From Takakia lepidozioides (Eukaryota > Plantae > Bryophyta), in contig CM060734.1 in the NCBI GenBank assembly GCA_030704615.1, positions 19,406,001-19,470,000 of the forward strand: a DNA stretch of 64,000 nucleotides, written 5' to 3'. Position numbers and translations under genes: made by a program. This document shows, one piece after another, positions 1 through 64,000 of this stretch (within the stretch, counting starts at the first letter, position 1; each line of letters begins with the position of its first letter). The notes beneath the pieces are model-generated. The model was not told the origin of the DNA and searched no databases. It saw only the letters and a program-made list of their open reading frames with translations.

Positions 1-62
1 TATTTGATGCACACACACATTGAAGGTTATTGTTTGCATTTCGCTTATAATGAGTTGTATGG

Positions 63-31360: not shown

Positions 31361-31921
31361 TCACATATCCCACCGAAAGAAGAAGACTGAGTGGTGGAAG
31401 TGATTGCTCCCCCAATGCGGCAAGACACACAAAAACACCGAGGATGAGTTCTTCCGCAAATGCATAAAGGAAGCAAACATGACATGCATCACTCCATCCT
31501 CAATAGTTAGGCAAATGTCACCAGCCCTGGTCCAAGGTCTTTCAGGTCTGCAACCCTTCTGAAGCTTGCGCATGATGGGGGAAGGAAGTTCGTCCAGCAG
31601 TTTAATGCAGTCCCAGCCTTCATCCACCCATTGAAACAAGGTAAGAATATGAAAACACTCGTTCTCCTTCGAAGGGTCCAGGCCCAAAGCATGTGGCCCC
31701 CACTCTTCGTTAGGAGCACACATGAATCTTGACCTGAGTACAACGGTGTTAGGCTGTTTTGCAGCTGCACTGTTGGTGTCATCGTAAAAGCCAGACCAGC
31801 CCACTCTACCTGCAGATACATGTGCTGTAAGAATGATATCCCCTGCTGTGGGTTTTGACCAATCCACCAATGCTTCCAATCCAGAGATGTGAGTCCCCAC
31901 GATGCCAGTAATATCTACCAC
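31361..31921 (-). other. 186-aa ORF fragment of unknown function, cut at its 5' end by the CACTAG terminus
   Basis: Protein-like composition; begins exactly at 31921; no family recognised. Confidence 0.3.
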
Positions 31922-32270
31922 ACTAGAAGCATTTGTGTCTTTTCCGAATCGACTGGGTGTCCACCAACCACTCCGGGAACCACTTGGCAGTAAGCGGGAC
32001 TATTGGGAGTCGAAACGGACAATATGGGCCCACGGGGGCATTTCAGACGGCGGGCAGAAGTGGGGTCAACGACTCCGGAGTCGTAGCAAAAATCCGGGCT
32101 ATTTAATTAATTACGTAAATACATAAAATTTGAAAAAACGGAAATTACAAGTGGTTCTAATTACTGCACTTGCGACTAGAAATTTTCATTCATAATTTGA
32201 TTAATGGAATAAAGATATTTCTTCATTAAAGTGAATACATAGTCGACTCAACGACTCCATGAACCACTGC
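31921..32270 (+). mobile_element. CACTA-type terminus (CACTAGAAGCATTTGTGTC) with subterminal palindrome
   Basis: Matches the terminus at 38878 at 18/19 nt; ACGACTCCGGAGTCGT at 32069-32084. Confidence 0.7.
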
Positions 32271-32399: not shown

Positions 32400-35300
32400 T
32401 CCAGCTTGTAGGGTTTGTCGTTCTGAACACCACCGTGGTGGACATGTATGCCGAATGTGGGAGCATTGAAGATGCGAAGGTAGTGTTCGACTGTGGCTCA
32501 ACGAGATGTGGTGTCGTGGAGTGCGATGATTGCATTGGCAACAAGACAAGGATGTATGCATGATTTTTGCAGAGACAATGATAGCTGAAGGAGCAAGATA
32601 GAGTGTGGGTCCATATTCATCAAAGAGGGTCGGATTTCAAGCTCCAGATTACCTATGGTTCCCTGTGGAAGGATAACTACAAAAAACCTCCATGGGTAGA
32701 TGGTCAGCTGGAAGCGGCAGCTGTAGCGGCACAGTTGATAAAATCAGGCACCTCAACCATGACCACAGCTTCTGGAAGAGGATCAAGAGAGGGAGTCCAC
32801 AATGCCTCTTCTGGCACTTATGGGCATGTGAAGATGCTTTATGAGGCAGGCAGACTGAAAGAGGCTCTACAAACTTTAAACCAAAGAGGCATTTCAGCAG
32901 ATGTAGATACGTATGTGTGCATCAAGATGAAAGGCCTAGAAGTTGGAAAGCAGGTGCACACTCACATTGTCCAAGAATGCCTCAACGATCTTTGATCACG
33001 TGGAATATAATGTTGGCAGGATTACCAAGCATGGGCGTGGTACGAATGCTTTGGAGACCTGTGAGCAAATGATGCGCGAAGGGGTGAAGCTCAACCACAT
33101 CGCGTTTGTATGTGTTTGCAATGCGTGTGCAAGCCTGGAAAAGGGGAACGAGGTCCATGGTGACATCGGTCAGAGCTGGAATTGCACCGGATGTCATTCT
33201 GAACACCGCCTTGACCTGGACATGTATGCCAAATGTGGATGCATTGAGGATGCAAAGGGAGTTTTCGACACTATGGCTGAACGAGATGTGGTGTTGTGGA
33301 GTGCGATGCTTGCAGGGTATGCACAACAGGGACGTGGGATGGAAGCTTTGGAGACCTATGATCCAATGATGGGGGAGGGGGTGAAGCCCGGCCACTTTGT
33401 GTGCATTTGCAATGCTTGTGCAAGCATGGCAGCCCTGGACAAGGGCAAAGAGGTGCATGGGGATATCATCAAAGCTGGAATTGTACCAAATGTCATTATG
33501 AACACTGCCCTGGCAGCTCTGGAAAAGGGGAAAGAGGTCCATGGCGACATCTTCAGAGCTGGAATTGTACCAAATGTCAGTCTGAACCATACCTTGGTGG
33601 ACATGTATGCGAAATGTGGGTGCATCGAGCCTGGACGAGGGCAAAGAGGTGCATGGGGTATCATATGCATCAAAGCTGGAATTGTACCAAATGTCATTAT
33701 GAACACTGCCCTGGCAGCTCTGGAAAAAGGGGAAAGAAGTCCATGGCGACATCTTCAGAGCTGGAATTGTACCAAATGTCATGCAGAACCATATCCTGGT
33801 GGACATGTATGCAAAATGTGGGTGCATTGAGCCCTGGACAAGGGCAAAGCGGTGCATGAGGTATCATCAAAGCTATTATGTACCAAATGTCATTATGAAC
33901 ACTGCCCTGGCAGCTCTGGAAAAGGGGAAAGAGGTCCATGGCGACATCTTCAGAGCTGGAATTGTACCAAGTGTCATTCTGAACCATACCCTGGTGGACA
34001 TGTTTGCAAAATGTGGGTGCAAAGGGATCTAGGATCTAGGATGCAAAGGGAGTGTTCGACACTATGGCTGAACGAGATGTGGTGTCGTGGAGTGCGATGC
34101 TTGCAAGGTATGCACAGCAGGGACGTGGGATGGAGGCTTTGGAGACCAATGAGCAAAGGATGGGGGAAGCACATCATGTTTGTGTGCATTTGCAATGCTT
34201 GTACAAGCCTGGCAGCCCTGGAGAAGGGCAAGAGGTGCATGGGGATATCATCAAAGCTGGAATTGTGCCAAATGTCAATCTAAACACTGCCCTGGCAGCT
34301 TTGGAAAAGGGGAAAGAGGTCCCAGGCGACATCTTCAGAGCTGGAATTGTACCAAATGTCAGTTGAACCATACCCTGGTGGACATTTATGTGAAATGTGG
34401 GTGCATCGAGCCTGGACAAGGGCAAAGAGGTGCATGGGGTATCATCAAAGCTGGAATTGTACCAAATGTCACTATGAACACTGCCCTGAGGTGCATGGTT
34501 GCATCGCCAAAGGCAACAGCTGCAGCGGCACAGTTGATAAAGTCAGGCACCTCAACCATGACCACAACTTCTGGAAGAGGATCAAGAGAGGGAGTCCACA
34601 ATGCCTCTTCTGGCACTTATGGGCATGTGAAGATGCTTTAAGAGCAAGCAGACTGAAAGAGGCTCTACTGACTTTAAACCAAGGAGGCATTTCAGCAGAT
34701 TCAGATACGTATGTCTGTCTCTTGCATAAGTGCATCAAGATGAAAGGCCAAGTGAAGCTAGAAAGCAGGTGCACACTCACATTATCCAAAGTGCACGCCA
34801 AATATTTTTCTACCCAACACCCTTGTCAACATGGATGTTATGTGCGGGAGCATCATGGATGCTCACCAAGTGTTCAACAGAATGCCTCAACGATCTTTCA
34901 TCACGTGGAACACGATGCTTGCAGGGTGTGCACAGCAGGGGCGTGGTATGGAGGCCTTGGAGAATGTGGTGAGGGCACCTTCTTCTTCGACCTATTTCAG
35001 CCTGTTTTTCCCTCTCATCAGACTCGGCCCTGAATTTACATATTGAATTGTCAAGGACAATGTGGTGAGGGCACCTTCTTCTTCGACCTATTTCAACCTG
35101 TTTTGCCCTCTCATCAGACTCGGCCCTGAGATGCATATTGAATTCTGTAAGTTAGCTCATTGGGTGGATCTGTGGTGGTTTGGAATGACTATGACAAGTA
35201 ACTGCCGATGTGGCAGCACGAAAGTATCCAAAACAGATAACAGAGATGAGGAGAAGGTGTGGAATGAATACTTTGTTGACCCCAGTGAATGGTAGAACAA

Positions 35301-38040
35301 CCGAGGCAAAAAGTTGAATGCCTATTAGATGACAGAGAGTAGCAGACGCAACTCAGCATAGGAACTAGTGTGATTGGGTGTTTCCTAGGTTGTCATTGTC
35401 AGCTTCTAGCAGCAAGGGCAAAGATGAATGCATGGTTTGTGGTGAGGCATGGATAGCTGAAGGAGAAGGGATATAGTGTGGGTCTTGATTCATCCAAGAG
35501 GGCCGGACTTCAAGCTCCAAATTACCTGTGATTCCATGTGGATCAATAGCTACAAGAAACCTAAATGGGTAGATGGTCAACTAAAGGCAATAGCTGTAGC
35601 GGCTCAGTTGATAAAATCAGGCACGTCCTCAACCATGACCGCAGCTTCTGAAAGAGGATCAAGAGAGGGAGTCCACAATGCCTTTTCTGTGGGGCATGTG
35701 AAGATGATTTGTGAGGCAGGCAGACTGACAAAGGCTCTAGGTCTGGAAGCTGGAATCAGGTGCACACTCACATTATCCAAAGTGGATTCATGCCAAATGT
35801 TTTTTCTACTCAACACCCTTGTCAACATGTATGTTAAGTGCGGGAGCATCATGGATGCTCGCCAAGATTTCTACAGAATGCCTCAGCGATCTTTGATCAT
35901 GTGGAATATAATGTTGGCAAGATTTACCAAACATGGGTGTGGTAGGAATGCTTTGGCGACCTATGAGCAAATGTTGCGCAAAGGGGTGAAGCCCAACCAC
36001 ATCACGCTTCCGCATGTTTGTAATGCGTGTGCAAGCCTGGGACCTCTGGAAAAGGGGAAAGAGGTCCATGGTGACATCGTCAAAGCTGGAATTGTATCAG
36101 ATGTCATCCTGAACACTCCCCTGGTGGACGTCTATGCCAAATGTGGGTGCATTAAGGATGCGAAGGGAGTTTTCAACACTATGGCTGAACCAAATGTGGT
36201 GTCATGGAATGCGATGCTTGCAGGGTATGCACAGCAGGGACATGGTATGGAGGCTTTGGAGACCTATGATCAAATGATGGGGGAAGGGGGGCACCTTCTT
36301 CAATAGCACAATGGCTACAAGTGGGTAGATGGTCAACTGAAAACAGCAATGGCAGCAGCACAATTGATAGAACAAGGCCCACTGCTAATGAAGGTACCTT
36401 CTTCAACATATTTCACCCTGTTTTCCCCTGCTATCAGAGTCGTCCCTAAATTTTCATGTTGAATTCTACAAGTTAGCTCGTTGGTGGATCTATGGTGGTG
36501 TTGGAGTGATTTTGACATGTTCCTGCCAATGTGGTCGACAAGAAAGTATCGAAAAATAGATAATAGAGATGTGGAGAAGCGCTGGAATGAATACGGTTCC
36601 GACCCCAATCAATGGTGGAACAATCCAGGCAAAAAGGTGAATGTCTGTTGGAAGCAGACGCAAGTCAGCATAGGAACTAGTGTGATAAGTAGGGTTGGGG
36701 TGTTTGCTAGCACAATTCTAGAGTGTTGTTGTCAGCTGCTAGCATCAAGGCAAGGATGTATGCATGATTTGTGCAGAGGCATGGATAGCTGAAGGAGCAG
36801 GGAGCAGTGTGGGTCCAGATTCATCCAAGAGGGCCGGATTTCAAGCTCCAGATCGCCTACAATTCCCTGTGGAAGCAGCACACACCTCGCACACACAAGA
36901 GGTCATCTTGGGTGCATGGTCAGTCAAATCCTCCATGGGTCATGACACAAGGTCGAGGACAATGTGGTGAGGGCACCTTCTTTTTCGACCTATTTCAGCC
37001 TATTTTCCCTCTCATCAGACCTAGCCCTGAATTTACATATTGAATGCTGTAAGTTAGCTCGTTGGGTGGATGTGGGGTGGTTTGGAGTGACTTTGACAAG
37101 TTACTGCTGATGTGGCAATAGGAAAGTACCCAAAAACAGATAACAAGATGAAGAGAAGCTTTGGGATGAACACTTTCCGACCCCAGTCAGTGGGGGGACA
37201 ATGGAGACAAAAAGGTGAGTGTTTGTTCGACTACAGAGAGAAGCAGTTGCAATTCAGAATTGGAACGACTGTTAAGTCCTAGGTTGGGGTGTTTTCTGGA
37301 AGAACTTCACGCCGTCACTGTCAGCTGCTAGCCGCAAGGCTGAGGGTTGTATCCATGATCTGTACATGGGCAGGGATAGCTGAGGGACCAGGGATAGAGG
37401 TCCAGATTCATGTTCAGGTTTAGGCTGAGGGATCAATAGCTAAAAGAAATCAGCTGGAGTAGATGGTCAATTGTTGCAAGTGGAAACAGTAGCGGCAGCA
37501 CAATTGATAGAATGAGGTGTTGCTCAACACATTTCAGCTTGTTTTTCCAAATAGGGTTGGGGTGTAAGAACAAATCTAGGCTGTCATCATCAGCTGCTAG
37601 CAGCAAGACAATGATATATGCATGATTTGTGCAGAGGCATAGATAGTTGAAGGAGCAGGGATAGAGTGTGGGTGCAGATTCACCCAAGAGGGCGGGGCTT
37701 CAAGCTCCAGATTGACTCTATAGCTACAACAAACCTGCATGGGTAGATGGTCAACTAGCAGCAGCGGCACAATTTATAAAATCAGACACTGCTAATGAAA
37801 GCATCTTATTCAACACATTTCACCTTGTTTTTCCCTCTAATCAGAATTGGTACTAAATTTCCATGTTGAATTCTGCAAGTTAGTTGGTTGAGTGAATCTA
37901 GTTTGGAGTGACTTTGACATGATACTGCCAATGTGACAACAGGAAAGTATCAAAAAACAAGTAACAGAGATGAGGAGAAGTTATGGAATGAATACTCCAG
38001 TCAATGATGGGACAACCAAGGCAAAAAAGTGAATGCTTGC
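32400..38040 (+). pseudogene. Scrambled array of OSB-type PDF-motif and PLS-class PPR gene fragments
   Basis: Repeated [46 protein letters not shown] and ACASLAALEKGKEVHGDIIKAGIVPNV. The PDF motif is split by an intron: EEKxWNEY..DP..WW.N.GKK|intron|IHPRGPDFK...LW....KP.WVDGQL. Many frameshifts. Confidence 0.9.
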
Positions 38041-39967: not shown

Positions 39968-42641
39968 CTAGCGCGCAAGTGACTTTCCATTCCCATCATC
40001 AACAGCAGTCATAACTGGCTCCCCAGCAGGGTACTCAAGACCCTCCTCCATCATGGCAGTGAGGTCCAAAATCTTTCCTTTTGTAGCTCTCACCAAGGCA
40101 AGAAGGTGTTGCTGGAGAAATCTGTTGTCATCCGTCAGTTCAAGAATAGTTTGCCACTCTGTGGAGATAAGGGCAGGTAGGCTGGGCAGTGGACTTCGAC
40201 CAACGGATGTTCTCTGAGCCATTGAAGGGGAGGTCAGACCTGGGGGAGTTTGTAAAGAGGATGGGATGGAAGAAGGGGAGTCATGACCAGTCATCAAGTT
40301 GTTCAGGCCACCTTTACATGTGCCCATGAGGGGTCCGCAGAACTTTGCAATCAGCCCATCCTCCACTTGGGGGTGCAACATCTTCAGAACCTTCACCTGG
40401 TGTGCACACATATTTCCTTTCTGGGTCCGGGTGTATGAGGCAGATGCACATTGGCATCTGGAATGTCCTTGGCAAGCAAGATTGAAGTGCAAACAAATCC
40501 CTCTTGTCGCTTGTTTCAGATGAACCCATATGCCTTTGCATGTGACATGTACCAGTAATGGGTTAGCACATCACCTGTCAGTTCAGAGATGAGCCAATCC
40601 ACCCGCCTACTACCGAGGACGTTTTTGGTGCTCTTCAATTGCGCTTTCAGGTTCCCGTGGTATGCTTCTATGGCAGCATTAGTGTCTTGAGAGGCATGAG
40701 ATATTGCGGGATCCTTTCATCCACATTTTGGCTTTTGGAAGCCACTCTGTCTCTATGTAGGTGGAGAATTCTGTCTCAGAAGGGTACTTCTCCCGCAGGT
40801 CCAAAATTTTGAGTACGGCCCATGCTTCACCTACATCCCCAGAGGTCTCCTTTCTATCATACATGATTTGTGCCAGGTCTTGTAAGATAGCCGCTCGCAA
40901 TACTGGGTCTTTCACCTTTGCAACTGCATTCTTCTGCCAGGCTCGGCGAACATGCCACAAGCACAAGAAAACAACACAATCCCCCCAAACAGATCTGTTC
41001 TCTTATCAGGTAGGTAAACTGAAATTGTGTAACCGAGACATCATGGTAGGCATATTGCCTGAGTTCATGGACGTACCTAATGGCAGCAATTTCAGCATCA
41101 ACGTCATCCACAATAAATGCATTGGGACGCCAGTCTACTTGCCGACTTGTCATTTGTTTGTTTAGTGCCTCCATCCAAGGCGTCATATCGATGGTTTTGC
41201 ACCTTGCAGTGATAATGTAAGCCACTGGAATACCATTCAGCCAGTCGTCGAATACCATCATGGTATATAACGGGTACTGCAACAACAATCATGTGTAACC
41301 GAAGTGACTTGAAAGGAAATGGTTGCAAAACAGAGTACTTCACACGAAGAACGTAATTTGTCATGCTTTCAAGAAATTTGGGTTAACAATCTGACGAACC
41401 TTCTTTTCATTCGTTCCAAAGGTTGCATCACAAGCAACTATGCGACGATGGCCATGTTTGGGCATCTGTTTTCTCTGCCAATCAGTTTGTATGCCAAGCA
41501 CAAATGGAAGGTCGAGTTTTTTGTCATTCAACGTCCAAGCAGGGTGATTAGACTCTTCATGGTAGTAGAAAACGCTTACTGCGTTTTCATGCACCCACAT
41601 TCGGACACTTTGTGCATCATTGGAGTGCTTTTTGAATGTTTCTTCATCGCACTTGTTGGCAATATTTCGGATGTCATTTGAAAGAAGGAAGGTGTCACGA
41701 GTAACCTCGAACCCCCCATCCATGATTTCCCTCACCCTCTGCGTATGCTTGGCCATTATCTTGTTGATGCTTAGTCCGAGACGGAGGTTGTGTAACACCC
41801 ATGATTTCATCTCATCGCTCAGGTGGGGAGTTAATGAAACGCGACCTACTTGATGCGCAAGTCCATGGCAGACTTGTCCAGCCCCATTCACATGTCTCTT
41901 TTCATAATAGACCAGCTCTGCAATATCAGGGTCCACATAGCATTGCTTCACTACAAACCTGCACATGCATCCCCTCTTGATGCCTTCCCCCGATTTTGTT
42001 TGTGTGGTCCTCATTTGTTTTGGCTTTGCTTCAGTGGAAGCGGCCGTGGCTCTTGGCTTCCTCCCCTTCTTCTTGGTAGGCTTCACTCGGCGTTTCTTGT
42101 GTGCCATTGCAAGGGTAACCTCCAAGAGGGAACTAGTTCTGTCCTGTGGACCATATGAGCAGTGATACCTACAATAACAAAAAAACAATCCGTTACTATG
42201 ACACCAAGGGGATTCAGGCACTCGGACATTCATGGAAATCATTCAGTAGCCCTTGCAACACATGACCTGCAGCCCAATGTACCTTGTTGTAGTCCTGGCA
42301 CTGTTGCTGCGAGGAGCTAAGAGAGACCCCTCCGGATGGCATCTTTGCTGATGCCTGCTGAAAGTGCATGGGCCATCTGAACGGGAAGACTCCCCTATAA
42401 TGAAATCAGCAACTCGATTCCAGGGAATGTAGGCGACTTCGGCAGAGTTTTGGCCAGGAGGCTTGCCATGCCATTGGAAACGCCACTGCAGTACATGATG
42501 GTTAAAAGCACCTACACTGGGCATTTGAACTTGGTTTCGAAGCAGCAAAACAAGATGGGATGCAGTGTTTTCTTCATTCTCGGCAACAGACATATCGTGG
42601 CGCAATTCAGGGACCTGAGGCACGGCTGGTATTGGCTGCAC
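39968..42641 (-). pseudogene. MULE-type DDE/SWIM transposase of the At4g13970/At1g60560-like family
   Basis: VAYIPWNRVADFIIGES; YHCSYGPQD; KRGCMCRFVVK; HVNGAGQVCHG; PFVLGIQTDWQ; ACDATFGTN (D1); FIVDDVDAE (D2); CLWHVRRAW; TNAAIEAYHGNLK (E); RRVDWL; SWIM CQC...CAH. Frameshift near 40700. Confidence 0.9.
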
Positions 42642-43773
42642 GTTGTGCTTTCGTGGTCAGAACAGTTTGAGAGGACCATGAAAGGAAGGTGACGATTGGA
42701 GGTTGCCCCTCATTACACATACTTCCTGGTCTCATCCATCCGTACCTACATACATCCATCCTAAATCCTAGAAGTCCCAATCCATAAAATAATACTAAAT
42801 TTCAAATTTGAATTTTGAAATTTGAACATGTACAACCTTGTGTATACATGCATATGTGAGGGCTTCCCGCCTATGGTCATCATGTGACTTTCGTGATGGT
42901 CATCATGTTACTTTCGTGACCATCATGTATGTGTCATTTGCCATGTATGGATCCATGTTTTCGACTCCCGATGTGTCCCGCGCGATGTTGGGTTGTGGTG
43001 ACAGGTGTCATGTGCCACCTGGTGGGGGGCATGATGGGTGGGATGGCGCCAGGGCGCGGCGACCGCGAGCCGCGCAGGAGCCGGGGAAGGGGGTGCGGCT
43101 GGGGTGGCGGGGGATGCCACGCAGGCAGGACCGAAGGGGTCGCATTAAACTCCCGGGGCTTTTCTAATGTGCGCCGTGTTTTAAGGAAACCGTTAATCAT
43201 AAATTCGCGTCATCTTTTATTAACCTCCTCCCTGCTCCCTCAGGTGACTCCAGCCTACCTTGTGGGATGCGGTAGGGCCTATAACCTTCTCCCCCTTCCC
43301 CTAGGTGAGTCTGGGTTCAAGTGCGGGATAACCTTCCCCGATCCCTTAGATGCATTTGGAGCAGAGGTTATCTTTTCCTTCCACTATAATTAAAGGCCCT
43401 GATTTGTGTGCAATCCCCGTTGTTTCCCTTCAAGAACAAAACAAACTATTTTCACAACTAAACGCGGGAAATCAATCCACACACATCACGGTAACAGGAA
43501 TTAGGCACCGAACTGTCTGCTGTAAGAAAAATCTCCAATTGCAAAGCCTGCTACATTGAGGATGCACTGGACTGTAACCATTGCGTCAACTACAAATTGC
43601 AGGCGTATGTAATCAAACAGGAGCCGATACATTTGAAGCTTTCTTACTAAGGCCAGAAGATAACGTAGATATTCCATCTTTAAGATATTTATTTAAGAGA
43701 ATAAATGAGACCCGCTTACCATCACATGTAACAAAATCAATGATATTCAATTGGACCCAACTTCTGGAGCCAT

Positions 43774-51110: not shown

Positions 51111-53307
51111 TTGGTACAATTCCAGCTTTGATGATATCCCCATGCACCTCTTTGCCCTTCTCCAGGGCTGCCAGGCTTGCACAAGCATTACAAATGCACA
51201 CAAACATGATGTGCTTCCCCCATCATTTGCTCATAGGTCTCCAAAGCCTCCATCCCACGTCCCTGTTGTGCATACCCTGCAAGCATCGCACACCAGCCAT
51301 AGTGTCGAACACTCCCTTTGCATCCTAGATGCACCCACATTTTGCAAACATGTCCACCAGGGTATTGTTCAGAATGACAACTGGTACAATTCCAGCTCTG
51401 AAGATGTCGCCATGGACCTCTTTCCCCTTTTCCAGAGCTGCCAGGGTACTGTTTAGAATGACATTTGGTACAATTCCAGCTTTGACGATATCCCCATGCA
51501 CCTCTTTGCCCTTCTCTAGGGCTGCCAGGCTTGCCCGACGCCACATCTTGTTCAGCCATAGTGTTGAACACTCCCTTTGCATCCTAGATGCACCCACATT
51601 TTGCAAACATGTCCACCAGGGTATTGTTCAGAATGAAATCTGGTACAATTCCAGCTCTGAGATGTCGCCATGGACCTCTTTCCCCTTTTCCAGAGCTTCC
51701 AGGGCAGTGTTCAGAATGACGTTTGGTACAATTCCAGCTTTGATGATATCCCCATGCACCTCTTTGCCCTTCTCCAGGGCTGTCAGGCTTGCACAAACAT
51801 TGCGAACATGATGTGCTTCCCCCATCATTTGCTTATAGGTCTCCAAAGCCTCCATCCCACGTCCCTACTGTGCATACCCTGCAAGCATCGCACTCCACGA
51901 CACCACCTCATAGGTCTCCAAAGCCTCCTTCCCACGTCCTTGTTGTGCATACCCTGCAAGCATCACACTCCACGACACCACATCTCGTTCAGCCATAGTG
52001 TCGAACACTCTCTTTGCATCCTTGATGCACACACATTTTGCATACATGTCCACTAGGGTAGTGTTTAGAATGGCATTTGGTACAATGCCAGCTCTGACGA
52101 TGTCGCCATGGACATCTGGACACTTCTAGCTTTGAAGATGTCACCATGGACCTCTGTTTTCCGTTTTCCAAGGTTCCCAGGCTTGCACACGCATTGCAAA
52201 CACAAACAATCGTGATGTGGTTCGGCTTCACCCCTTCGTGCATCATTCGCTCATTCAAAGCATCGTACCACATACATATCTGAATCTGCTGAGATGCTCC
52301 TTGGTTTACAGTCTGTAGAGCCTCTTTCAATCTGCCTACCTCACAAAGCATCTTCACATACCCAGAAGAGCCAGAAGAGGCATTATGGACTCCCTCTCTT
52401 TATCCTCTTTCAGAAGCCAACGAGCTAACTTACAGAATTCAGTATGCATCTTAGGGCTGAGCCTCCATCCCACGCCCAAGCTGTGCATATCCTGCGATCA
52501 TGGCGTTACAAGACACCACATCTCCTTCAGTCATATTGTCGAACACTCCCTTTGCATCCTTGATGCATCCACAATTGGCATACATGTCCACGAGGGTACT
52601 GTTCAGAACAATATCTGGTTCAATTCCCGCTTTGATGATGTCACCATGGACCTCTCTGCCCTTTTCCAGGGCTGCTAGGCTTGCACACGCATTGCAGACA
52701 CAAATAAAGGTGATGTGATTGGGCTTCACCCCTTCCCACCATTTTCTCATAGGTCTCCAAAGCCTCCATCCCGCACCCATGATGTGCATATCCTGCAATC
52801 ATTGCACTCCAAGACACCACGTTTCGTTTAGCCATTAGGTCGAACACTCCTTTTGCATCCTGAATGCACCCACATTTAGCATACATGTCCACCAGGGTAC
52901 TATTCAGAATGATATCTGGTAAAATTCCAGCTTTGACAATGTCCCCATGGACTTCCTTGCCCTTATCCAACGCTGCCAGGCTCGCACACACCTTGCAAAC
53001 CTAACCTGGGGTGATCTGGTCGGGCTTCACCTCTTCCCTCATCATTTGCTCATAGGTCTCCAAAGCCTCCATCCCGCGCCCCTGCTGTGCATAAGCTGTG
53101 ATCATCGCAGTCCAAGACACCACATCTCGTTCATATTGTCCAACACTCCCTTTGCATCCTCGATGCTCCCACATTTTGCATACATGTTCATCAGAACAGT
53201 GTCCAGAACAACATCTGGTACGATTCCAGCTTCGACAATGTCAACATGGACTTCTTTGCCCTTTTGCAGGGCTGCCAGGATCACACACGCATTGCAAACA
53301 CAGTACA
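51110..53307 (-). pseudogene. Scrambled PLS-class PPR fragments, same family as 32400-38040
   Basis: ACASLAALEKGKEVHGDIIKAGI, LVDMYAKCGCIQDAKGVFD, VVSWSAMIAGYAHHG; many frameshifts. Confidence 0.9.
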
Positions 53308-53399
53308 TGAAAAAAGGGAAGAAGAAGGAGGAGATGGAGGTCGCGTCGCCGAGCAGGAGTGACTTGAAAATCTCGCTAAGTCCTCGGCCCCCTCACTGC

Positions 53400-53748
53400 T
53401 ACTTACGGAGCTCACAACCCGAGCTCCCTATCAATTGTCCAGCTCACAATCCGATGCGTGTCATTGTAATTTCAAAATAGTGCCATATTGGTTACAATTG
53501 AAAAAAATGTCCCCGGTCCAACCCGCAATCGTCAACACGACTGCAAATTTCAAATCAGCCTGTAAATCGGCGTGAAACCCGGAGTTCACTTCTGCGACTT
53601 CTATACTCCATCCTTTATGTCAGCATGGCATAAAAACGACTGCGACGACTGGCGAGTCGTCATTCACAACCTGGAGTCCCACGCGTAATCGTTTCGGACA
53701 GAATCGCAACCGCGAGTCGGGTGCGAAAAGCACCTATTCCTTGTAGTG
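53400..53748 (-). mobile_element. CACTA terminus (CACTACAAGGAAT on minus strand) with subterminal ACGACT..AGTCGT palindrome
   Basis: ATTCCTTGTAGTG ends at 53748; ACGACTGGCGAGTCGT at 53645-53660. Confidence 0.65.
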
Positions 53749-54964
53749 ACACTACGAGAAGTGGGAGAACCCATGAACTCCCAAGGATGAGCAAGACGAA
53801 TAATCAAGGAACCAACATTTTCGTAAAGGACAGAGATTTAAAAGACTTTATTTAAAAACTATTTGAGATGGGGATTTGCGGGGCGGGCTTATTGGCTCCT
53901 CCCTATAAGGGAGAGACCAAGCATTGGTGCCAAAAATGAGTAAGATCCTGATATACCTCCACTAGATAATACCTACATGAAGCAGATGATCCTCCCCCAC
54001 TTAAATGTTAGCTTGAATATACCTTGATTGGATAAGACCCATAAGAGTGATTCTTACACATGTAAATATTCATATGCTTATATAGGCTTATATACGCGTT
54101 GTAACTTAGGGTTGTTTTTTTTTCAGGGAAGACGTGTGTTACGCGGGGATGCAGAATGGCAGCATCTTCGCTGAAAAGCTTTAGGGTTTTGTTTATGGCA
54201 GAGAAGACGCGCAGGGATGGGGGGATGGCAGCGTCTTCATGCATGGTTTTCTGGAAGTACAAGAGCATGAGAGGGAGTCCTCCATATGTGTGCAGGTGGG
54301 ATTTGCAACCAACCCGAAGCAGCTACAAGTATGTGTTATCGTCTCTTAATTCTGAAACAACACGGTTATTGGTGCAATTTCTCTCATGTCTTGTTGGAAA
54401 TCGGAGTCTGTGGCTGCTTGGTCCAGGTTTATCGAGAGCATATCCTACTGGCATGCTCTTCCTGCTTGTGCCATGCTGTAATCTTTAAGCTCTAGATGCA
54501 CATAGGTACATTATTCCTTCCTTGCTCTTAGAGAGGATGTTTGAGAGAGTCGTGGCCATCAAATGCGGTTTAGTGGTGTGACAGATCTATTGCAATTGAG
54601 GATTAAACCAAAGTTGTGCGGTCTGCCAGCAGAAATGAAACGAAATGAAATGGTACTTTATAACGTCCGCGGAAAGTTCAAAGAGCTTATGGGACAAAAT
54701 GGGGAAAACAACATGAGAGAGGAAACAAGACCAGAGCCAAAAAATAAGCAGAGAAAGACTCCAATTGCACACAGATTTGGAATGTCTGTAGAGAGAAAAA
54801 TTCTTCAATTACTATTTGATTAGTCAGTTAATAAGGTGTTGGAGCATGCATAGATCAACACAGATGAATCAAAGTTGTGCTGTCTTTTCAGTTTGGGGTT
54901 TGCTGTCACATTTTAGGTTTCACCTTGTTCATGTTATCTTCTAGGCTTCCTCACTATCTCTCTA

Positions 54965-55325
54965 TTTACAGTTTTACAGTCTTACAGTTTTACAAATTTA
55001 CAGTTTTATAGTTTCATGGATCTTTAGTATATATCTTTTTAAACATATAAAGAGATCTCCAAAAGGTCCTCGAGCAAGGTCACTAGTGCAGCTGCTCCAG
55101 CCCCTTCGGACTCGAAAAAGTCACGTAATCATCTCATAGGGACTTCCGAGCAGCAACCCCTGGAAGTCAATAGCAACAAAACAGCCCACCTAAATAAGTT
55201 TCTCAGTGAGTATTTCAGTTTTACAGTTTTACAAATTTACAGTTTTATAGTTTTATGGATCTTTAGTATATATCTTTTTAAACATATGAAGACATCTAGA
55301 TAAGTTTCTCGGTGAGTATTTCAGT
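54965..55325. repeat. ~85-110 bp local duplication containing (CAGTTTTA)n
   Basis: 'tttacaaatttacagttttatagttt.atggatctttagtatatatctttttaaacatat' at ~54990 and ~55228. Confidence 0.8.
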
Positions 55326-56589
55326 ATTTTATCAGTATTTCACTTAAAAAAACATTTTTCAGCTCATTATAAACTTCATTTTTCTCAATTGTCATATTGT
55401 AAATTTATTTGCTTTTCATTTCAAATTACTTCTTTATATTTCTATTACCGTAGCACCTTGGCAAGATCGATAATCATCTGTCGAATATTTATTTTATTTT
55501 GAGAATTTCATTTCAACATATGAAATATTCTCAAAGATGTTTTATTATCATTCACAAAGTTACTTAATTTCACAAAATCAATTCCCAAAATTTTCAACAA
55601 TCTTTGAAATATTAAAATTTGTGTCGAAGTTGACAAGGTACTACGGTATCTCAATTACATACTTAAAAGTTTTTATTTCATATTCACATTTATTTTATAT
55701 CATTCTGCTTTGCATGCCCAATCCATGTTCTCACTTTCACCACGGTTTTAATTTCATAGTTTTAAAATTTTAAAATCTAACAATTGAACAAGACCAATAT
55801 ATCAGCTTGAAGTTCAATTTTTCACTTCATATCATATGATTTATTTCAAGGAAATAATTATATTCAAAATTCTCTAATCTAATAATTTTTCATTAATCTA
55901 ATTAATATTACACTTTTTTGTTTACGATTATTGTTGCGGTTAACAACAAAATTTCTTAATTCATCTTCTTCTTTATGTAAATCCTACATTTCTCATTTAT
56001 TAATGTTTACATACTTAACTACAACATAGTAAATTGCATCCAAAAAAATTCATCCATCCAAAAAAATAGTCAGTATTTCAACAAATATCTCAATATTTTA
56101 CTAATTCAGAAAATTGAAAGATCAGTTATAGTATCATACATTATACTTAATTTTTGCTCTTATGGTACATGTTCATTTAGGTCATTGTTCTATATTGAAA
56201 AAGATCAAATTTAAAATTTTATGAGAGGATTTGATGATTATTATATTTTCAATTGCCAAAGTTGTCAATAAAAATAATACAATAAGCTGATTGTTATCAT
56301 ATATTTTCATATAACAGATATTCTAATATGAAGACTGAATGATGCTTAGGTTTTTTCGATTTAAGTCTATTCTCTATTATAGGGAATTTGTTTTTTATTT
56401 TGTTTTTTAAATCTACAAATAAAATAAAGTTTTTCCAGGGTCTCTGGTCTCTGCCCTTGTTATACATATATGTTTAGTTTCAATATAAAATTATAAATAA
56501 ATATTCTACTCTCAAGGTGGAGCCATTACACGACTAGCCGCTTGTTAAAAAGCTTTTGCATGCCGTCAAGATTTGTGGGAGAGACCGAT

Positions 56590-57575
56590 GTCAAGTGTCC
56601 AATGTCATCTAAGTCTAAGTGTAATCCCGAAGCCCACTTTATTGATACATCCACTTTGATATTTTTCACCAATTTCCAGCGACCAAAAGTACTTGAAATT
56701 CCAAATCTCCCACCTGAAGGGGCCAATCTTTGATATTTTTTCCGAATTTCCAGCGACTAAAAGTACTTGAAATTCCAGATCTCCCACACCGCAAGTCCAA
56801 AAATCATGAGGCCAAGCCGGTGCACGTCTCCTCATCGAGGGCTTTCCAATGCGACCAAGGCGCACCGGGGCTGGGCTGCGGTTTGGGAGATCTCAACCAC
56901 TTTATAAAACAAAACAAAACAAACAAAACGTCTCGCTTCATCATATACTAGGGTAGCCTGTGTTGTTGGCCCAAGTATCTAGTGTCATCATGAATCCAGA
57001 GACCCTACAGTTTGGGAGATCTCCACGTCATTGTTCCATGAAAGCCCACTTTGTTATTTTGCTAGGGTAGTCTGTGCCGTTGCCCAATTGTCCAATGTCA
57101 TCTAAGTCCAAGTGCAATCTCCTATGAATCGAAGTGCAGCTCCTATTGAGGCTTCAATATACCCACATTGCTAATTTTCACGAATTTACAGCGATATTGT
57201 GAATGCCAATATTTAAAAAAGCCCAATTTACATTTATGTCCAAGTGCACAAAAGACATGAAAGGCCAATCATTGTTCCAGGAAAGCCCACTCATTGTTCC
57301 GGGAAAGCCCACTCATTGTTCCGGGAAAGCCCACTTTGCTATTTTTCACGAATTTCCAGCGACCAAAAGTCCTTGAAATTCCAAATCTCCCATATGAAGG
57401 GCCAATCAAGCCCACTTTGCTATTTTTCGTGAATTTTCAGCGACCAAAAGTACTTGGAATTCCAAATCTCCCACATTGCGGTTCCAAAAATCATGAGACC
57501 AAGCCGGTCCACCCCTCCTCATCAAGGGATTTCCAATGGCACCAAACAAAATAAACGTCTCGCTTCATATATCGA
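56590..57575 (-). mobile_element. Further units of the same Helitron-like repeat
   Basis: CTAGGGTAG(C/T)CTGTG at 56948 and 57062; 5' end TCGATATATGAAGCG at 57575 (minus strand), preceded by A. Confidence 0.65.
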
Positions 57576-57969
57576 TTGACGTTGATGGTTTTTGCATTTT
57601 TTTTGAAGTAAAATATTATTATTTTAATACTGAGTTCTTTTTTGGTAAAACATGGTTGATATCTTTGAAACATCTGCAAATTGCTACTAGTTGGCATTTC
57701 CAGAGTTCATGTTGATCTGAAGCGGCTCGCAGATAGCAGGGTTCAAATCAAACCTAGAAAGTAAATCAACAACAAGATAAGCGGTGCCTTGGTATTATAC
57801 TTATTTAGTCATACGTATCTGTTTGACTTGGTTTAAAAATCATACCGTGCAGGGCATTTATGGTTTTCCTGTGGCATTTGTTGGAGCAGGTAGAGGACAA
57901 GGGCGCCTAAATTTTTCATTCAGAATGCATGTTCATCCAACTTCATCCACATCAGTTACGCCGTTAATT

Positions 57970-58018
57970 TTTAAAACCACGCGGCCTGATTCAGGTCGCG
58001 TGGTCGTTTAAGGGTTAA
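57970..58018 (-). mobile_element. Lone piggyBac-like terminus (TTAA|CCCTT) with subterminal hairpin
   Basis: AAGGG-TTAA at 58010-58018; ACCACGCGGCCTGA-T-TCAGGTCGCGTGGT at 57976-58004. Confidence 0.45.
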
Positions 58019-58959
58019 CTGAAGTGGGTTTCTCTTGGATGGAAAGGGGAAGATACTGCATCATGGATATTGACAAGTACCCTTCATATGTCAAGGACAT
58101 TGTTTTTATTTGTCATTCTTGTGATAGTTGGTTTGTTTGATGAATGCCATAATGAGGAGTTTACATTTAAAGACTCGCTGTCGTGATCGCATCTTCTCCC
58201 ACCTCACCCCTCTAAGTCCATTCTGCACTCACACTACTCCACAAACATATTCAAAATATATCATGCCAATATTCTTTTTTCATCAATCTTTTGTTCTGTC
58301 TCATTTTTATTTTTTATTTTATTTTTATTTTTTTGGGTAAATGATGAATTCGCAGTCCCGACACATTAGCAGTTACACTCTCCTTTCAAGTACAATTATG
58401 CACTGGACAATTTTATCAACTTTTTCATCCAAAACAAGGTATGGATCCTTTTCTATATTGTCCACAACCCAAGTTAATATAGACCTACACTACCAATCCT
58501 TACTTCCACATGAAGGAACTGGACCTCAATAAAAGAAGGCCTAAACTTGATAAGATGAATTGATGACCCAAAAACATGAATGGGATGACTCGAACCAAAA
58601 TCCTCTATCATAGTTTTTATAATTCATGACATTTTTGTTTGCTTCAATATGCACATAGTTCCGTTCATATGGATGAATGATCATTTCATCAATAGATGAA
58701 AGTCATAATGATAATATATACATAAGTTACACTTGCTTCGGCAATGCGTCCACCTTTCTTTTTACATATACCTTTGTTTTAGAATCCTCTTATCTATATC
58801 GCTCTTCCATAGTAGGTATTTGGTTGTTTGGCTTGTTGCGGCCCTTTGGACATCTGACTTGGCCATAGCCAATGATTCCCTCGGATAGAAAATTGTGCTT
58901 TGCTCATTTTCAAATTGTCCAACCCTAATTAGAGAACACCACAATAATGTTGAAATATA

Positions 58960-60150
58960 TAGATGAGGGTGAGGAAGGAGAGGAGGGAGATGGAAACTTG
59001 ATGGAAAGGGAAATTGAGAATGCATGTTTGTATGTGGTTATATGCAACACAACACATACACTCTTTTGGTGTTAAGTTGCTATATAACAAATAAGTGTTA
59101 AGTTTGACTTTTATAGATCAAAACATTTTCTTGCGCTCCGGTTTGAGTCCAAATGATAAGAACTTTTACCAACCATGTAATCAAAAACTTTAGACTTTCG
59201 TATGGTTGATGTACCCACATTGAAATGATCTACCATATGTGTAGCACTATACCCATGAGCAAACCTATATAGAACAATGGCCACAATTTTTCTGATCTCT
59301 AATTGTGGCCTCACAGGATTAAGACATTGAGATTGCAAGAAAGGTGTCAATTCTAAAACCACGTTGTTGAAAGCTTCAGAACTCATCCTGTAAAACATTA
59401 AACATTTCTTGTCTCTCATTTCAGGTGTACTATGCCACACGTTTTTTTCTACATTATCCCAGTATTGTCTAGGTTCTTTCCACCGCAAGCGAGGTGGGTG
59501 ACTCTTCCTCTTTGCAATGACACAGAAAATTGGAAGGAAACTAAACCCTATTGACGGTTCATTGTCTGCAAGCAAGTGCCTCAATCTGGACTTGAACATT
59601 GCACAGTTTCCTAAGGTAACCGAAAGAAGCATCCAAATGAGGAGAATCCCTCACATGAGAGCTCGGTCTATTTTTCTATGGTTGGTTTTGATAAAGAGGC
59701 ATCTTAGCATGTAATAGCAAGGCGCACCTAATCACATGTGATGGCAAGCAAGCTTCGGTAAAAACCAGAACAAAAAAGAAGAGCGCGGCAGGGCAACCAA
59801 CCGTTCGCCGCATGTGCCGTGTACGGCCGTTCGCTTCGCTCGACTGAGGTGGGGCCCGCCGCTGGCGAATTCTCCAGGCGAACGGGAAATCACAAAGTGC
59901 ATATGCGCGGGCCTAGATGAGGGTTGAGGAAGGAGAGGAGGGAGATGGAAACTTGATGGAAAGGGAAATATGGGAATGCATGTTTGTATGTGGTTATATG
60001 CAACACAACACACACACTCTTTTGGTGTTAAGTTGCTAAACAACAAATAAGTGTTAAAATTGACTTTTATAGATCAAAACATTGGCTTGAGCTCGACTTT
60101 GAGTCCAAACGATAAGAACTCTTACCAACCATGCAATCAAAGTCTTTAGA
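58960..60150. repeat. ~235-bp direct repeats (58960-59194 and 59914-60150) bracketing a Harbinger fragment
   Basis: Both copies run from TAGATGAGGGT to CTTTAGA with high similarity. Confidence 0.85.
59195..59520 (-). pseudogene. PIF/Harbinger (HARBI1-like) transposase N-terminal fragment
   Basis: FYRMSSEAFNNVVLELTP...KIVAIVLYRFAHGYSATHMVDHFNVGTSTIRK (helix-turn-helix region); the DDE core is missing. Confidence 0.8.
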
Positions 60151-61744
60151 TGATAATATATAGGATGGCACAAATATCATAAATTCTCTATTTTGAAACG
60201 AGAAGTTCGCTTCCTAACCCAACAAATAAAGCATCCTTCATTTTTTTTAAGCTCTTAAGACTTATCCTCCAAATCTGTAGCTCTTTGCAAGCGTTATTCA
60301 CTTGCATGTCTAGCTTGGATATAGTCTGGCCATGCTCAAAGCCTGTCAGCTCCCTCTCCTTGGCATGTATGTTGTCACATTTCTCTTCAATTAAGAGTTC
60401 TATATACAATCAACAAAACTATTTCTTACAACTATGAAATGCATTCTATTAATAAATGCCTTGTCTCCAATAACATGTGTTGGTAAAATACAACATTAAG
60501 GTATGATGCAATGCATGACTTATCTCATGTAAAAATTAATACTGGAGGTATAAAAGCCATGTGATATGATGGACTTTAGAAAGCCCACTTGACAAATAAC
60601 AAATAACGTGTTCAATCTGTTCTTGCACTGATTCAATTCTTTAATCGGGGCACAAGTAGACACACCATCTTAATATTGGTGCACTACATGTCAGTGAGGT
60701 TGTCTCTCAGTTTGGATGCCCCCCCCCCCTCCCTCCCTCCGCCTATGTGTATGTGGTTGCTGCTTACTTCTAGAGTTTTGGAGCTGCGATTATTCCTCCT
60801 TATGCTATATTTCACGAATATAATGAATATTAGATTGACAAATTTAAAATTTGAGATCATTTTCTCCCCCCCTTTTTTTAAGTAACTTTAGCTCTACTGA
60901 AATACATTGTGGATATGAAAGATGCAAAAGTAATTGTATTTAGGCCTCTGCAGGAGGGAGTGGTCACAACATGTGCGTAGAGATGTATTCAAGTAAAATG
61001 GTGCAGTATAAGTAAAATTAAAAGGCATTTTTGTGTGAGATATTTGTACGTGTTGTGAACATTTGTGCCAAAGTAGAGAATCAATAGCTACATGGACAAC
61101 TATCAGTTCTATCTTCAGAAAATTAAATTTCAACCATCAAAGACACGAAAGTACTGAATCACGATTTAAAAAAAAAAAAAATACAGAACAGGGGAGTGGC
61201 CCTGGAAATTTATCAAAGGAAGATTGAAGATACAAGAGGAAAAAATAACCTCTTTTTCTATTTGTTACTTATCACAAATGCAAGCACCAACCACCAATAT
61301 CTTAGAAGATTTTGGAGAACATATATGTACATTGTGGCGGAGATCCCATGCATAGCTGAGTGGTTAGGGCATAATACCATTTCAAAAACTAGTGGTTGTC
61401 GGCTCAAAACCACATAAGTGTCACGTTGGATGTGTCAAGTTAAATAAGCACAGTGTGAAAACAACTAGAATAAAGCTAGTTATTTGTATTTAACACTTGG
61501 ATTTAGGTCAAGTGTTAAATCAGGTGTCAAGTTTAGTTTGACACCTGAACCGTCTTATCTTCACGAGAGCGGCAGTCGCGCAGCTCATCTCTCTCGAGTT
61601 GAGCCTGCGCGACCGAGCTCCTTCATGCGTTCAGATCTGAGTGTGCTTATGATGGGAGTGTAGGTTGTTGTGGGGTGGAGTCCCCATAGCGTGGGGTGCC
61701 CCTGGCTCGACTTCTATTTTAAAGAGTGATAGCGATGGATTTCA

Positions 61745-64000
61745 TACGACGTGATGCCTCAGAAAGAGAAGGCACCGCCGTGGTCCCAGTGGAAAATCCC
61801 ATAGCCCGCTCTCGCTCGTCGGCATTAGGCTCCACTAACTGTTGCAACTAAGCATCCCACAGGAGGCCAGGTCCACCATCCCGAAAAGCATGGGATCCTG
61901 GGAAGCTGAGCAGTGTAGGTAATGCTACTCGTGGTTGACCCACCCTGTTGACCACTGCCAAAGGCGAACGGTCATCGTGTTTCACACGTTGAGACTGCCT
62001 CCCTATGTCCAAAATGCTGTCCACTATGAGGTGTGTTGGCCGCTGCACCCCATCAAATGCACGCTTGAGCAGTGCGGGTGGCATCAAGTTAGTCCACCAT
62101 AGCCGTGGACGATGAGCCCGTGATCCCACTGCAACTACATCCAGCAGCACTGCTAACCCAAGCCACGACTTGATGCACACTGGCCATCACCCTGGCCCGA
62201 GGCCCATCAGTGGCACATTCTCCAAGATGTATGTTGGCGATACAGCTTGATGAAGCTGCAAGTGGCGCAAAATCCGCACCATCTCCCAAAACAGACCCGT
62301 CCTCGAGTCTCGCAATCCATTGCCATGCCCGGTTGATGAATGCCCTTGGCAGGGCCAACCTGCCACTACCAGATCAATGGAGCCAACCTGCTCCAAATCC
62401 GGCGCCCCCAGCAACGAAATGTCTGCTAGCAAGGCTTGTTGGTATCCACGAACTGCAGACACTAGCAACAAAGCAGAGTACTGCTGTACCAACTGAGCAA
62501 CATGGCGCAGTGAGACGCGTCGTGCAGTCTCATCCCTCTCCACATACAGGTAACGCCTTACCCGCACACCTGCCTGTAGCACAGCAGCCAATTCCGTGCC
62601 GATCCCGCCAAACAAGTCCAGAAGGCAAATGCCTTTATCCGGATACTGCCACACAATAGGTGTGGTTTCCAATGGTGACAACTGAGGTGGTCCTGGTGCA
62701 ATACCCGCACTCTCCTCCTCTCCTGACGGTACAAAAGCCTCTACCTAGGCTTGTTGCACCCGTCGATCAGCAACCTGCTGCAAATCCTTGCTCGTACCCC
62801 ACAATGGAGTGTGAGCAACCATGGCAGACCACTCCACCATACCATGCATGTCATCCTGCTCTGCTGGAGGTGGCACATCCTCTGAATGGGCATTGCCTTC
62901 CAGCAACTCTCCAGGCCAACTAACTGTAGCTGTAAAGGCGGCTAGTATTGGCATCTTGCCCCGTTGGGCAGCCGCAATATCCTCAATGAATGTCACAGGG
63001 AGCTGTACACGACGACCATCCCCTGACTGCCATCCAGGCCTGTAGAATGCTGACTCCTCCCAAAAGTCCAGGGTGAAGCCCATGGGGTATAACACTGCCC
63101 CACCCACGAGGACATCGTAAGAGACCGCGTCTGTCACAATGGCCTTGGCTCGCATCAATGAGCCATCTGTAGGGTGATCCGGCTACAGTCTAATGGCCAA
63201 CTGATGTCGTGTCATCCCCCGAGCCTGCTCTGATCCTCCCAGAGATGTCTGTATTTGGAAATGACAAGGCTCCATATCCGCCTCCATGAGGCCCAAACCT
63301 GCAATAGCAGCCCTGCCCAACATCAGTGGCTGAGCTCCCGAGTCCAACAAGACCCGCAGTGGCCGGTACTTCTTGCCTGCCGATCCACTCAAAGAGAAAA
63401 TGCCATCCTGGTTGTCTAACAAGACAACTCCAGGTGTCACCATGGCGCGCTCAAAGGCTGGCCTAGCTGGCAGCTCCGTCAACCTGGCAGCTGTAGCTTG
63501 CTAGGGCGCAGCCGTGGCAGTCTTGACCCTCAAATCCGAGGATCCCTCTGCCACTACACCTTCCACTAACTCCGAAGAAGATGAAGTGACCTCCCCACTC
63601 TCACAGAGTGTTGCTGTTAGTCTGAACACTGCAGCTGGCCTTACCCCCGGCGTCGCAATCATGGTTGCCGAGAATAGTGGGGCTTGACACACAGAGGTGG
63701 CTGCCCCCAATAACACACCGGCTGCACTAGCCTTGGTAGCAGGTGTCAGTGCTGCACGTGTAGCTCTCCCCAATGGCATAGTAACCTCCGCCTCGGTAAC
63801 AGTCGGGCGAGAACTAGGTGCCATGGATGGCGTCGACACAGTCTCCGCCAATGTGAATGACTGAGGAAGCCTCGCCTGACGGCTTGCCTCCCCACGCTGT
63901 GGATCCAATTCCACCTCTGCACCTCGTGGCTCAGGAACTCGTGCTGCTCCTCGAGTCACGACTGCAGCAGACTCCACCTGCTCTAGTGGTAGTGCTGCTC
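61745..64000 (-). pseudogene. LTR-retrotransposon (Ty3/gypsy-like) polyprotein: low-complexity gag-like tail, aspartic protease, C5 cytosine DNA methyltransferase; single frame with five in-frame stops, truncated before RT
   Basis: RVLLDSGAQPLMLG and YDVLVG (retropepsin). LDLFGGIG (motif I), VERD (II), AGWPCQG (IV), ILENV (VI), AHRPRLWWTN (VIII), EPNADERERAMGF (IX). ORFs starting at 63977, 63482, 63158, 62681 and 62180 share one frame. Confidence 0.9.

Follow-up and report, generated by a model that had tools for sequence, protein, structure and literature searches.

A dead Gypsy-type retrotransposon copy with a DNMT3-like methyltransferase in a land plant, and what its relatives suggest about the family

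Why would a retrotransposon carry its own cytosine DNA methyltransferase (DNMT), and does the minus-strand end of this 64,000-nt stretch of DNA (here, the window) hold such an element? An earlier note, made from the letters alone, read a retrotransposon polyprotein with a methyltransferase here and cited DNMT-bearing retrotransposons from Klebsormidium and dinoflagellates. The portions of PMC5890265 in our scope (de Mendoza et al. 2018) describe KnitGypsy-Dnmt3 of Klebsormidium nitens, an element with DIRS-like repeats and Gypsy enzymes acquired in the K. nitens lineage, and SymbioDIRS-Dnmt3 of Symbiodinium. According to the same source, the Symbiodinium enzyme carries out de novo CG methylation in yeast, and the Klebsormidium enzyme gave no activity there, a result that its authors call inconclusive. 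The KnitGypsy-Dnmt3 kind was later named "Gypsy-DNMT3" of streptophytes (bioRxiv 10.64898/2026.05.21.726589); the available parts of that preprint and of PMC12344493 speak of "streptophytes," with the species unnamed. As we read it, a Ty3/Gypsy-type element has left a decayed and truncated copy in the window, and the methyltransferase of its relatives likely methylates their own new cDNA inside the particle. We give this explanation, with all four of the steps described below, a probability of about 0.6.

The copy was read in frame -3 from 63998 on the minus strand, where 759 codons, including five TAG or TGA codons, extend from 63998 to 61746. The coding order is Gag tail, retropepsin, and C5 methyltransferase truncated ahead of motif X (Table 1); the copy runs off the end of the window, and the 5' part of the element lies outside it. 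The LDSGA of the retropepsin is at 63347-63333, and the methyltransferase motifs follow in unpermuted order: I (62621-62598), IV (PCQ; 62354-62346), VI (ENV; 62222-62214), VIII (62120-62103), and IX (61817-61794). A Pfam search matched PF00145 with an E value of 4.9e-11 and 43.1 bits, against a curated Pfam cut-off of 22; the protease match was weak (Asp_protease_2, E = 0.17), but this region aligns with the protease region of the Marchantia protein Mp4g09160. Over 753 columns, 63980-61746 is 55% identical to that protein.

Table 1. Parts of the retrotransposon copy and of the adjoining repeat in the window
Feature	Coordinates	Strand	Basis	Stop codon
C-terminal part of Gag / pre-protease linker	63441..63998	-	alignment to Mp4g09160 residues 436-605	63503-63501
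Retropepsin (aspartic protease) region	62980..63440	-	weak Asp_protease_2 match; Marchantia protein alignment; locus-built PR profile	63185-63183
Protease-methyltransferase linker	62658..62979	-		62747-62745
DNMT3-like C5 cytosine methyltransferase	61746..62657	-	PF00145; DNMT3A as best PDB match; tree; model of a stop-free relative	61850-61848
Out-of-frame stretch between two small compensating deletions	62166..62201	-		TGA 62189-62187
313-bp piece of an equally abundant repeat abutting the cut DNMT	61433..61745	.	depth step at 61433; different flank in run X8	

The single minus-strand frame of about 2.25 kb that had been proposed does join protease and methyltransferase, but it is broken at 62166-62201, and the accompanying claim that there are no frameshifts does not hold. 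Additional letters stand behind 62201 and 62166 in other copies from the host, and exactly where frame -3 fails, the relative P0044 (494-511) is matched by another frame (11/18 identical; E = 2e-5). Because the TGA in this stretch is out of frame, it is no point mutation. The remaining stops (63503, 63185, 62747, and 61850) are single transitions relative to most other host copies. Two of them fit the proposed CAG/CGA deamination of the coding strand, but the other two need deamination of the opposite strand. The proposed deletion of motif X and reverse transcriptase (RT) was borne out: similarity to relatives ends at 61746, just ahead of motif X, and the window past this point is matched by 0 of 94 relatives. 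Integrase (IN) and the DNMT-RT linker are deleted likewise. Motif X is missing from the window copy alone, as 30 contigs of sequencing run X1 extend past 61746 and there resemble, by eye, the motif X of relatives. With four stops, a shifted stretch, and everything past motif IX lost, the window copy is dead.

To which class does the methyltransferase belong? In a comparison with PDB sequences, the family profile matched DNMT3A (1.3e-25) ahead of DRM (2.9e-13) and M.HhaI (1e-8). The predicted structure of the stop-free domain of a relative (L014; pLDDT 94.5) matched the folds of DNMT3B (Z 29.1, rmsd 2.6, 279 aligned), DNMT3A (27.9), M.MpeI (25.1), and DNMT1 (19.2). As judged by profile and predicted fold, the domain is DNMT3-like, nearer to DNMT3 than to DRM, DNMT1, DNMT2, or bacterial enzymes. 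The DNMT3-type catalytic fold is common to the DNMT3 and DRM enzymes of plant hosts as well, but the available part of PMC6453930 describes a DUF3444 at the C terminus of host DNMT3 and a rearranged motif order in DRM. We rejected DRM identity on motif order, which is not VI-X before I-V, and a host DNMT3 gene on the position behind a retroviral protease and on DUF3444, which Pfam searches found in neither the window copy nor 16 relatives. Had a DNMT3/DRM gene of the host been captured or retrocopied by chance beside a protease fragment, a copy without RT or integrase would be accounted for. However, the window DNMT is 62 to 68% identical to its closest retroelement counterparts, compared with only 24 to 25% between a close relative's domain and DNMT3A/B, and very many host contigs share the sequence. 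Retroelement kinship, motif order, and abundance largely refute such a capture, which we consider extremely improbable. The domain groups with retroelement copies in a tree of retroelement DNMTs only, and nesting among host genes, for which the earlier note had allowed, is improbable. That the copy is a dead member of the retro-DNMT3 kind of element is, in our judgment, very likely.

We next consider the host. The window contains several frameshifted, partly duplicated pentatricopeptide repeat (PPR) genes at 32585-36306 (plus strand) and 51188-53480, identified by Pfam PPR repeats and presumably of the class that serves RNA editing in land-plant organelles. The named organisms among the 120 of 686 matches listed for these frames are land plants only, at no more than 54% identity. 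By its PPR genes, the contig is from a land plant, and a non-seed host is likely. The suggestion that this lineage persists in a non-seed land plant therefore stands as to the land plant, given the PPR matches and the bryophyte relatives, and is only likely as to "non-seed." Since many relatives come from environmental assemblies, we also weighed an algal or contaminant contig. We rejected this very unlikely origin, against which stand the land-plant PPR matches, the presence of the element's flank at single-copy-like depth in the same runs, and the annotation of the family on Marchantia chromosomes.

Four sequencing runs of one sample contain 60 to 65% of the words of 54001-64000. In run X1, summed contig depth is 0.5 to 1.2 million over 61436-64000 versus 109 to 169 over the flank 60500-61201, and 25,741 contigs were aligned; summed depth is no copy number. 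The 313-bp tail is as abundant as the DNMT part. The element family is plainly very abundant in this host. Contigs of runs guessed to be RNA also cover parts of the element and were kept out of the evidence.

Among 52 near-length matches, the 24 with a named organism are all from bryophytes (19 Marchantia, 2 Calypogeia, and 3 Sphagnum). One Marchantia protein cluster has 18 members, and many Marchantia copies are present as unlabelled gene models; Mp6g11220 (P0002) gave no Pfam match and is without the motif IV region. Relatives have the part order gag-PR-DNMT-RT-RH-IN-PHD (PR, protease; RH, RNase H). Marchantia MARPO_0091s0058 and Mp2g26090 span DNMT-RT-RH, and other polyproteins span PR-DNMT-RT-RH-IN, one with PHD. 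Of the best 80 among 479 metagenome loci, 52 leave room of 1.2 kb or more behind the DNMT, and RT comes next in 45 of these; DNMT-RT-RH-IN is found in 28/80, and all seven parts are found in 6/80. One of these loci (L014) is 100% identical over 141 residues to an integrase of Sphagnum fallax. The link between methyltransferase, RT, and integrase anticipated in the earlier note is thus seen in relatives, not in the host. Full-length relatives encode a DDE-type integrase (rve, PF00665, with Integrase_H2C2) and no recombinase family; on these grounds, we rejected a DIRS element.

In a quick, unrooted tree of 63 picked retroelement domains (SH-aLRT support only), from which P0058, P0060, and further short or redundant rows were omitted, the window DNMT joins copies of Marchantia, Calypogeia, and the Sphagnum type in a clade with 99% support, and the copies of every host make up a subgroup of their own. 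The RTs of the DNMT-before-RT layout also form one clade (22/22; 99%). These host-wise subgroups fit long vertical descent. K. nitens sequences are absent from the named matches, and likeness to KnitGypsy-Dnmt3 was drawn from its description in the accessible parts of PMC5890265; on that comparison of features, the statement that Klebsormidium-type Gypsy-DNMT3 elements occur in land plants holds.

Several more distant groups were observed. A second layout, RT-RH-DNMT-IN(-PHD), occurs in 47/240 proteins (P0020, P0022, P0026-P0040, P0043, and others), including a protein of Cymbomonas, an alga for which "EpiLTRs" have been published; its DNMTs form a related clade (99%), and its RTs lie outside the DNMT-before-RT clade. 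A second moss clade (L063-L080) has DNMTs about 40% identical; it shares the split ends and the self-primer geometry described below and has no stop conserved between DNMT and RT. Viral contigs gave 30 distant phage-type matches (29 to 48% over short stretches) and no close kin, and the ESM Atlas gave generic PF00145 clusters only. Prokaryote genomes gave two loci, one of them a retroelement contig. This locus, L111:1-9285, is filed under a cyanobacterial genome and contains a whole collapsed retroelement unit with a 127-bp terminal overlap and the same palindrome and stop as the elements described here. It and P0035, which is named as a bacterial MAG protein, look like eukaryotic contamination.

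How might such an element make its proteins? DNMT and RT could each be read in a single frame in 26 loci, and both share one frame in 23. Within the window clade, 13/13 in-frame loci stop at the same place after the DNMT, and CAA comes next in 12 of the 13; the double stop of L055 is not in a CAA context. Gag-PR-DNMT proteins, those of Marchantia included, end 93 to 115 residues past motif X. The sequence TAG-CAA-YYA is a read-through signal of the tobacco mosaic virus type. In the second moss clade, there is no common stop and 4/10 linkers are stop-free, so the conserved stop is not needed for the whole family. As a first step of the proposed cycle, Gag-PR-DNMT would be the main product in the window clade, given the in-frame stop that follows the DNMT in relatives; RT-RH-IN-PHD would be made by read-through, as the TAG/TAA-CAA context suggests, and each particle would receive many DNMT copies.

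The ends of the relatives are unusual. The locus L057 reads repeat A (1679-2017), coding part, G-rich tract, repeat B, 2 nt, A, and B, with the ends TGTC and GACA; L077, of the second moss clade, has the same A-coding-B-A-B plan in unrelated sequence, and the 3' B-A-B is also found in L018, L029, L069, and L027. Two whole long terminal repeats (LTRs), one on either side of the coding part, were not found in the relatives, whose repeats are split as A-coding-B(-A-B). Four of the five two-ended copies have 4-bp target duplications (L057, A-coding-B-A-B; L020 and L074, A-coding-B; L019, rearranged), and L077 has none. B never precedes the 5' A among the left ends, which number 19 + 11 and represent 16 + 8 distinct sites.

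In 16 of 20 loci, 11 to 15 of the 15 bases right after A are complementary, at one offset, to a site about 25 to 35 nt below a TATA-like box in A; among shuffled 15-mers, 22/2000 reach at least 12 complementary bases. The second moss clade has the same self-primer geometry in other sequence in 9/9 loci, taken as the best of many offsets and without a null comparison. A G-rich polypurine tract lies immediately 5' of repeat B. If A is followed by the primer site and B preceded by the polypurine tract, B + 2 nt + A would be the true LTR. In the second step of the cycle, the element RNA would prime itself, and reverse transcription would yield ordinary LTRs of this composition.

How could ordinary LTRs become split ends? 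As a textbook rule, the integrases of LTR elements use the tips of linear cDNA, and foamy-virus integrase can cut a palindromic circle joint. In the third step that we propose, integrase would act on the palindrome GACA-NN-TGTC inside the LTR rather than on the cDNA tips. A two-LTR circle opened at the palindrome would give A-coding-B-A-B, which is the form that can copy itself anew, and A-coding-B would result from a one-LTR circle or from linear DNA cut twice. The palindrome is also present in the distant L111. Insertion from a circle through this internal site has, in our view, slightly better than even odds. The same element, with the same role for its enzyme, could also do without a circle if integrase cut both internal palindromes of a linear cDNA to give A-coding-B, with A-coding-B-A-B arising from linear dimers or later recombination. 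For such a route speak the A-coding-B copies with target duplications, which are seen directly (L020 and L074), and the mirror form A-B-A-coding-B, which opening a circle at either LTR should produce and which is found in 0/30 left ends. However, A-coding-B is without the 3' A needed for strand transfer, so that A-coding-B-A-B would have to be remade every cycle. In addition, A and B meet end to end in a clean joint, which in L013 and L019 still contains part of the primer site, as expected of a circle fresh from ligation, and the two repeat pairs of L057 have aged alike (A, 92.3%; B, 93.7%). We regard the linear route as the less probable of the two.

We return to the opening question of what the enzyme does. 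Its catalytic Cys and ENV Glu are invariant in 45 sequences, and between families dN is 0.29 versus a dS of 1.5. Within clades, where the copies compared are decayed and non-independent, median dN/dS is 0.58 for DNMT (349 pairs, 27 copies) versus 0.41 for RT in the window clade and 0.34 versus 0.44 in the second moss clade. Of 44 single-frame DNMTs in loci, 4 are stop-free. Depletion of CpG or CHG as a sign of self-methylation was not found: CpG values of the DNMT elements are 0.29 to 0.78, a depletion no stronger than in the remaining Gypsy elements of these loci (0.51 and 0.52).

Through its fusion to Gag, the enzyme would be packaged along with the cDNA. In the fourth step, methylation of the cDNA would let the new copy enter the host genome already marked. 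From the position and conservation of the domain, self-methylation by the element's DNMT is our favored role, with modest confidence. The enzyme could instead have its role beyond the particle: it could act on chromatin of the host close to the insertion site, with the PHD finger as its guide, or on other elements, or it could be a decoy or a module for DNA binding. Such a role would suit several observations: the Gag-PR fusion ahead of the stop separates DNMT from RT in the window clade, the second layout places DNMT between RNase H and integrase, and the CpG values hold no self-methylation signature. Against it, the Gag fusion would bring DNMT and cDNA together, a pure decoy would not be expected to keep its catalytic residues, and K. 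nitens retains an ordinary plant-like methylome in the account given by the available parts of PMC5890265. We consider an outside role unlikely. Combining self-methylation with the other steps, one may picture an old green-plant lineage of integrase-using elements with a mid-LTR attachment site, two-LTR-circle insertion, self-priming, an active Gag-level DNMT3 before a leaky stop, and self-methylated new copies; as a whole, this picture is tentative and less likely than not.

How do these elements compare with known ones? Like KnitGypsy-Dnmt3 as described in the accessible parts of PMC5890265, they have an intronless, unpermuted DNMT3-like domain in a Gypsy polyprotein and, in relatives, A-coding-B-A-B repeats. 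They differ in having a land-plant host with kin in liverworts and peat mosses and, in the window clade, a conserved stop before RT, whereas the DNMT of KnitGypsy-Dnmt3 is placed in the Pol frame. Those parts of the paper make no mention of self-priming, of target duplications, or of a palindrome inside the LTR. SymbioDIRS-Dnmt3 is likewise a retroelement that has a DNMT3-like domain and direct repeats in split form, but it uses a tyrosine recombinase, unlike the DDE integrase and 4-bp target duplications of the present relatives (PMC5890265, same parts). Tf1/Sushi elements and plant Tcn1 chromoviruses, compared by features with the available text of PMC6317226, resemble them in that the 5' end of the element itself, instead of a tRNA, is the predicted pairing partner of the primer site; those elements have chromodomains and ordinary LTRs, in contrast to the PHD finger, DNMT, and split ends here. 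The Chlamydomonas Gypsy-7a_cRei is also a Gypsy polyprotein with a PHD finger, but no methyltransferase is reported for it in the accessible parts of its source, and a figure legend there places the PHD ahead of integrase (bioRxiv 10.1101/2022.06.16.496473).

In our literature search, which covered mainly the text of openly available papers, no publication turned up that reports such copies from land plants or explains their ends. The proteome table of PMC5890265 lists Physcomitrella and Selaginella, and the word "Marchantia" was not found in three files of that paper. What appears to be new, from these sequences, is the land-plant host range, the clade-specific stop, and an end structure implying an unusual insertion route; the kind of element is itself known from algae.

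These observations matter chiefly beyond the window copy, which, being dead, serves only as a pointer to the family. With DNMT-bearing retrotransposons now in Marchantia, and not just in a hard-to-study alga, a transposon's gain from its own methyltransferase becomes testable. Marchantia methylation mutants exist, and an uncounted source of DNMT3 could confound bryophyte methylation genetics. If the ends reflect insertion of a circle through an internal site, they represent a departure from the rule of linear cDNA tips.

The repeat piece abutting the cut DNMT ends sharply at 61433, with TGTCA on the plus and TGACA on the minus strand. It had no DNA match elsewhere in the window or in the relatives' loci and repeats, and the GACA-NN-TGTC joint is absent from the element's region of the window. 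By strand composition, it is weakly nearer to the relatives' A than to their B. It is more likely to be the left end of an opposite-strand A-type repeat than the window copy's own right end, a preference to which the composition lends slight weight.

Other parts of the window were also scanned. The long frames at 9193-10011, 11531-11905, 19132-22139, and 31361-31999 gave no Pfam match. Frames at 40857-42656 (minus strand), two of which were scanned and gave no Pfam match, resemble what we take to be a Mutator-like transposase. At 58967-60150, two direct repeats of about 240 bp, 89 to 98% identical and 956 bp apart, surround a 179-codon frame that gave no Pfam match and presumably resembles the start of a PIF/Harbinger transposase. 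Finally, 54-4269 (plus strand) holds a decayed CACTA transposase region (Transposase_21, DUF4218, and DUF4216).
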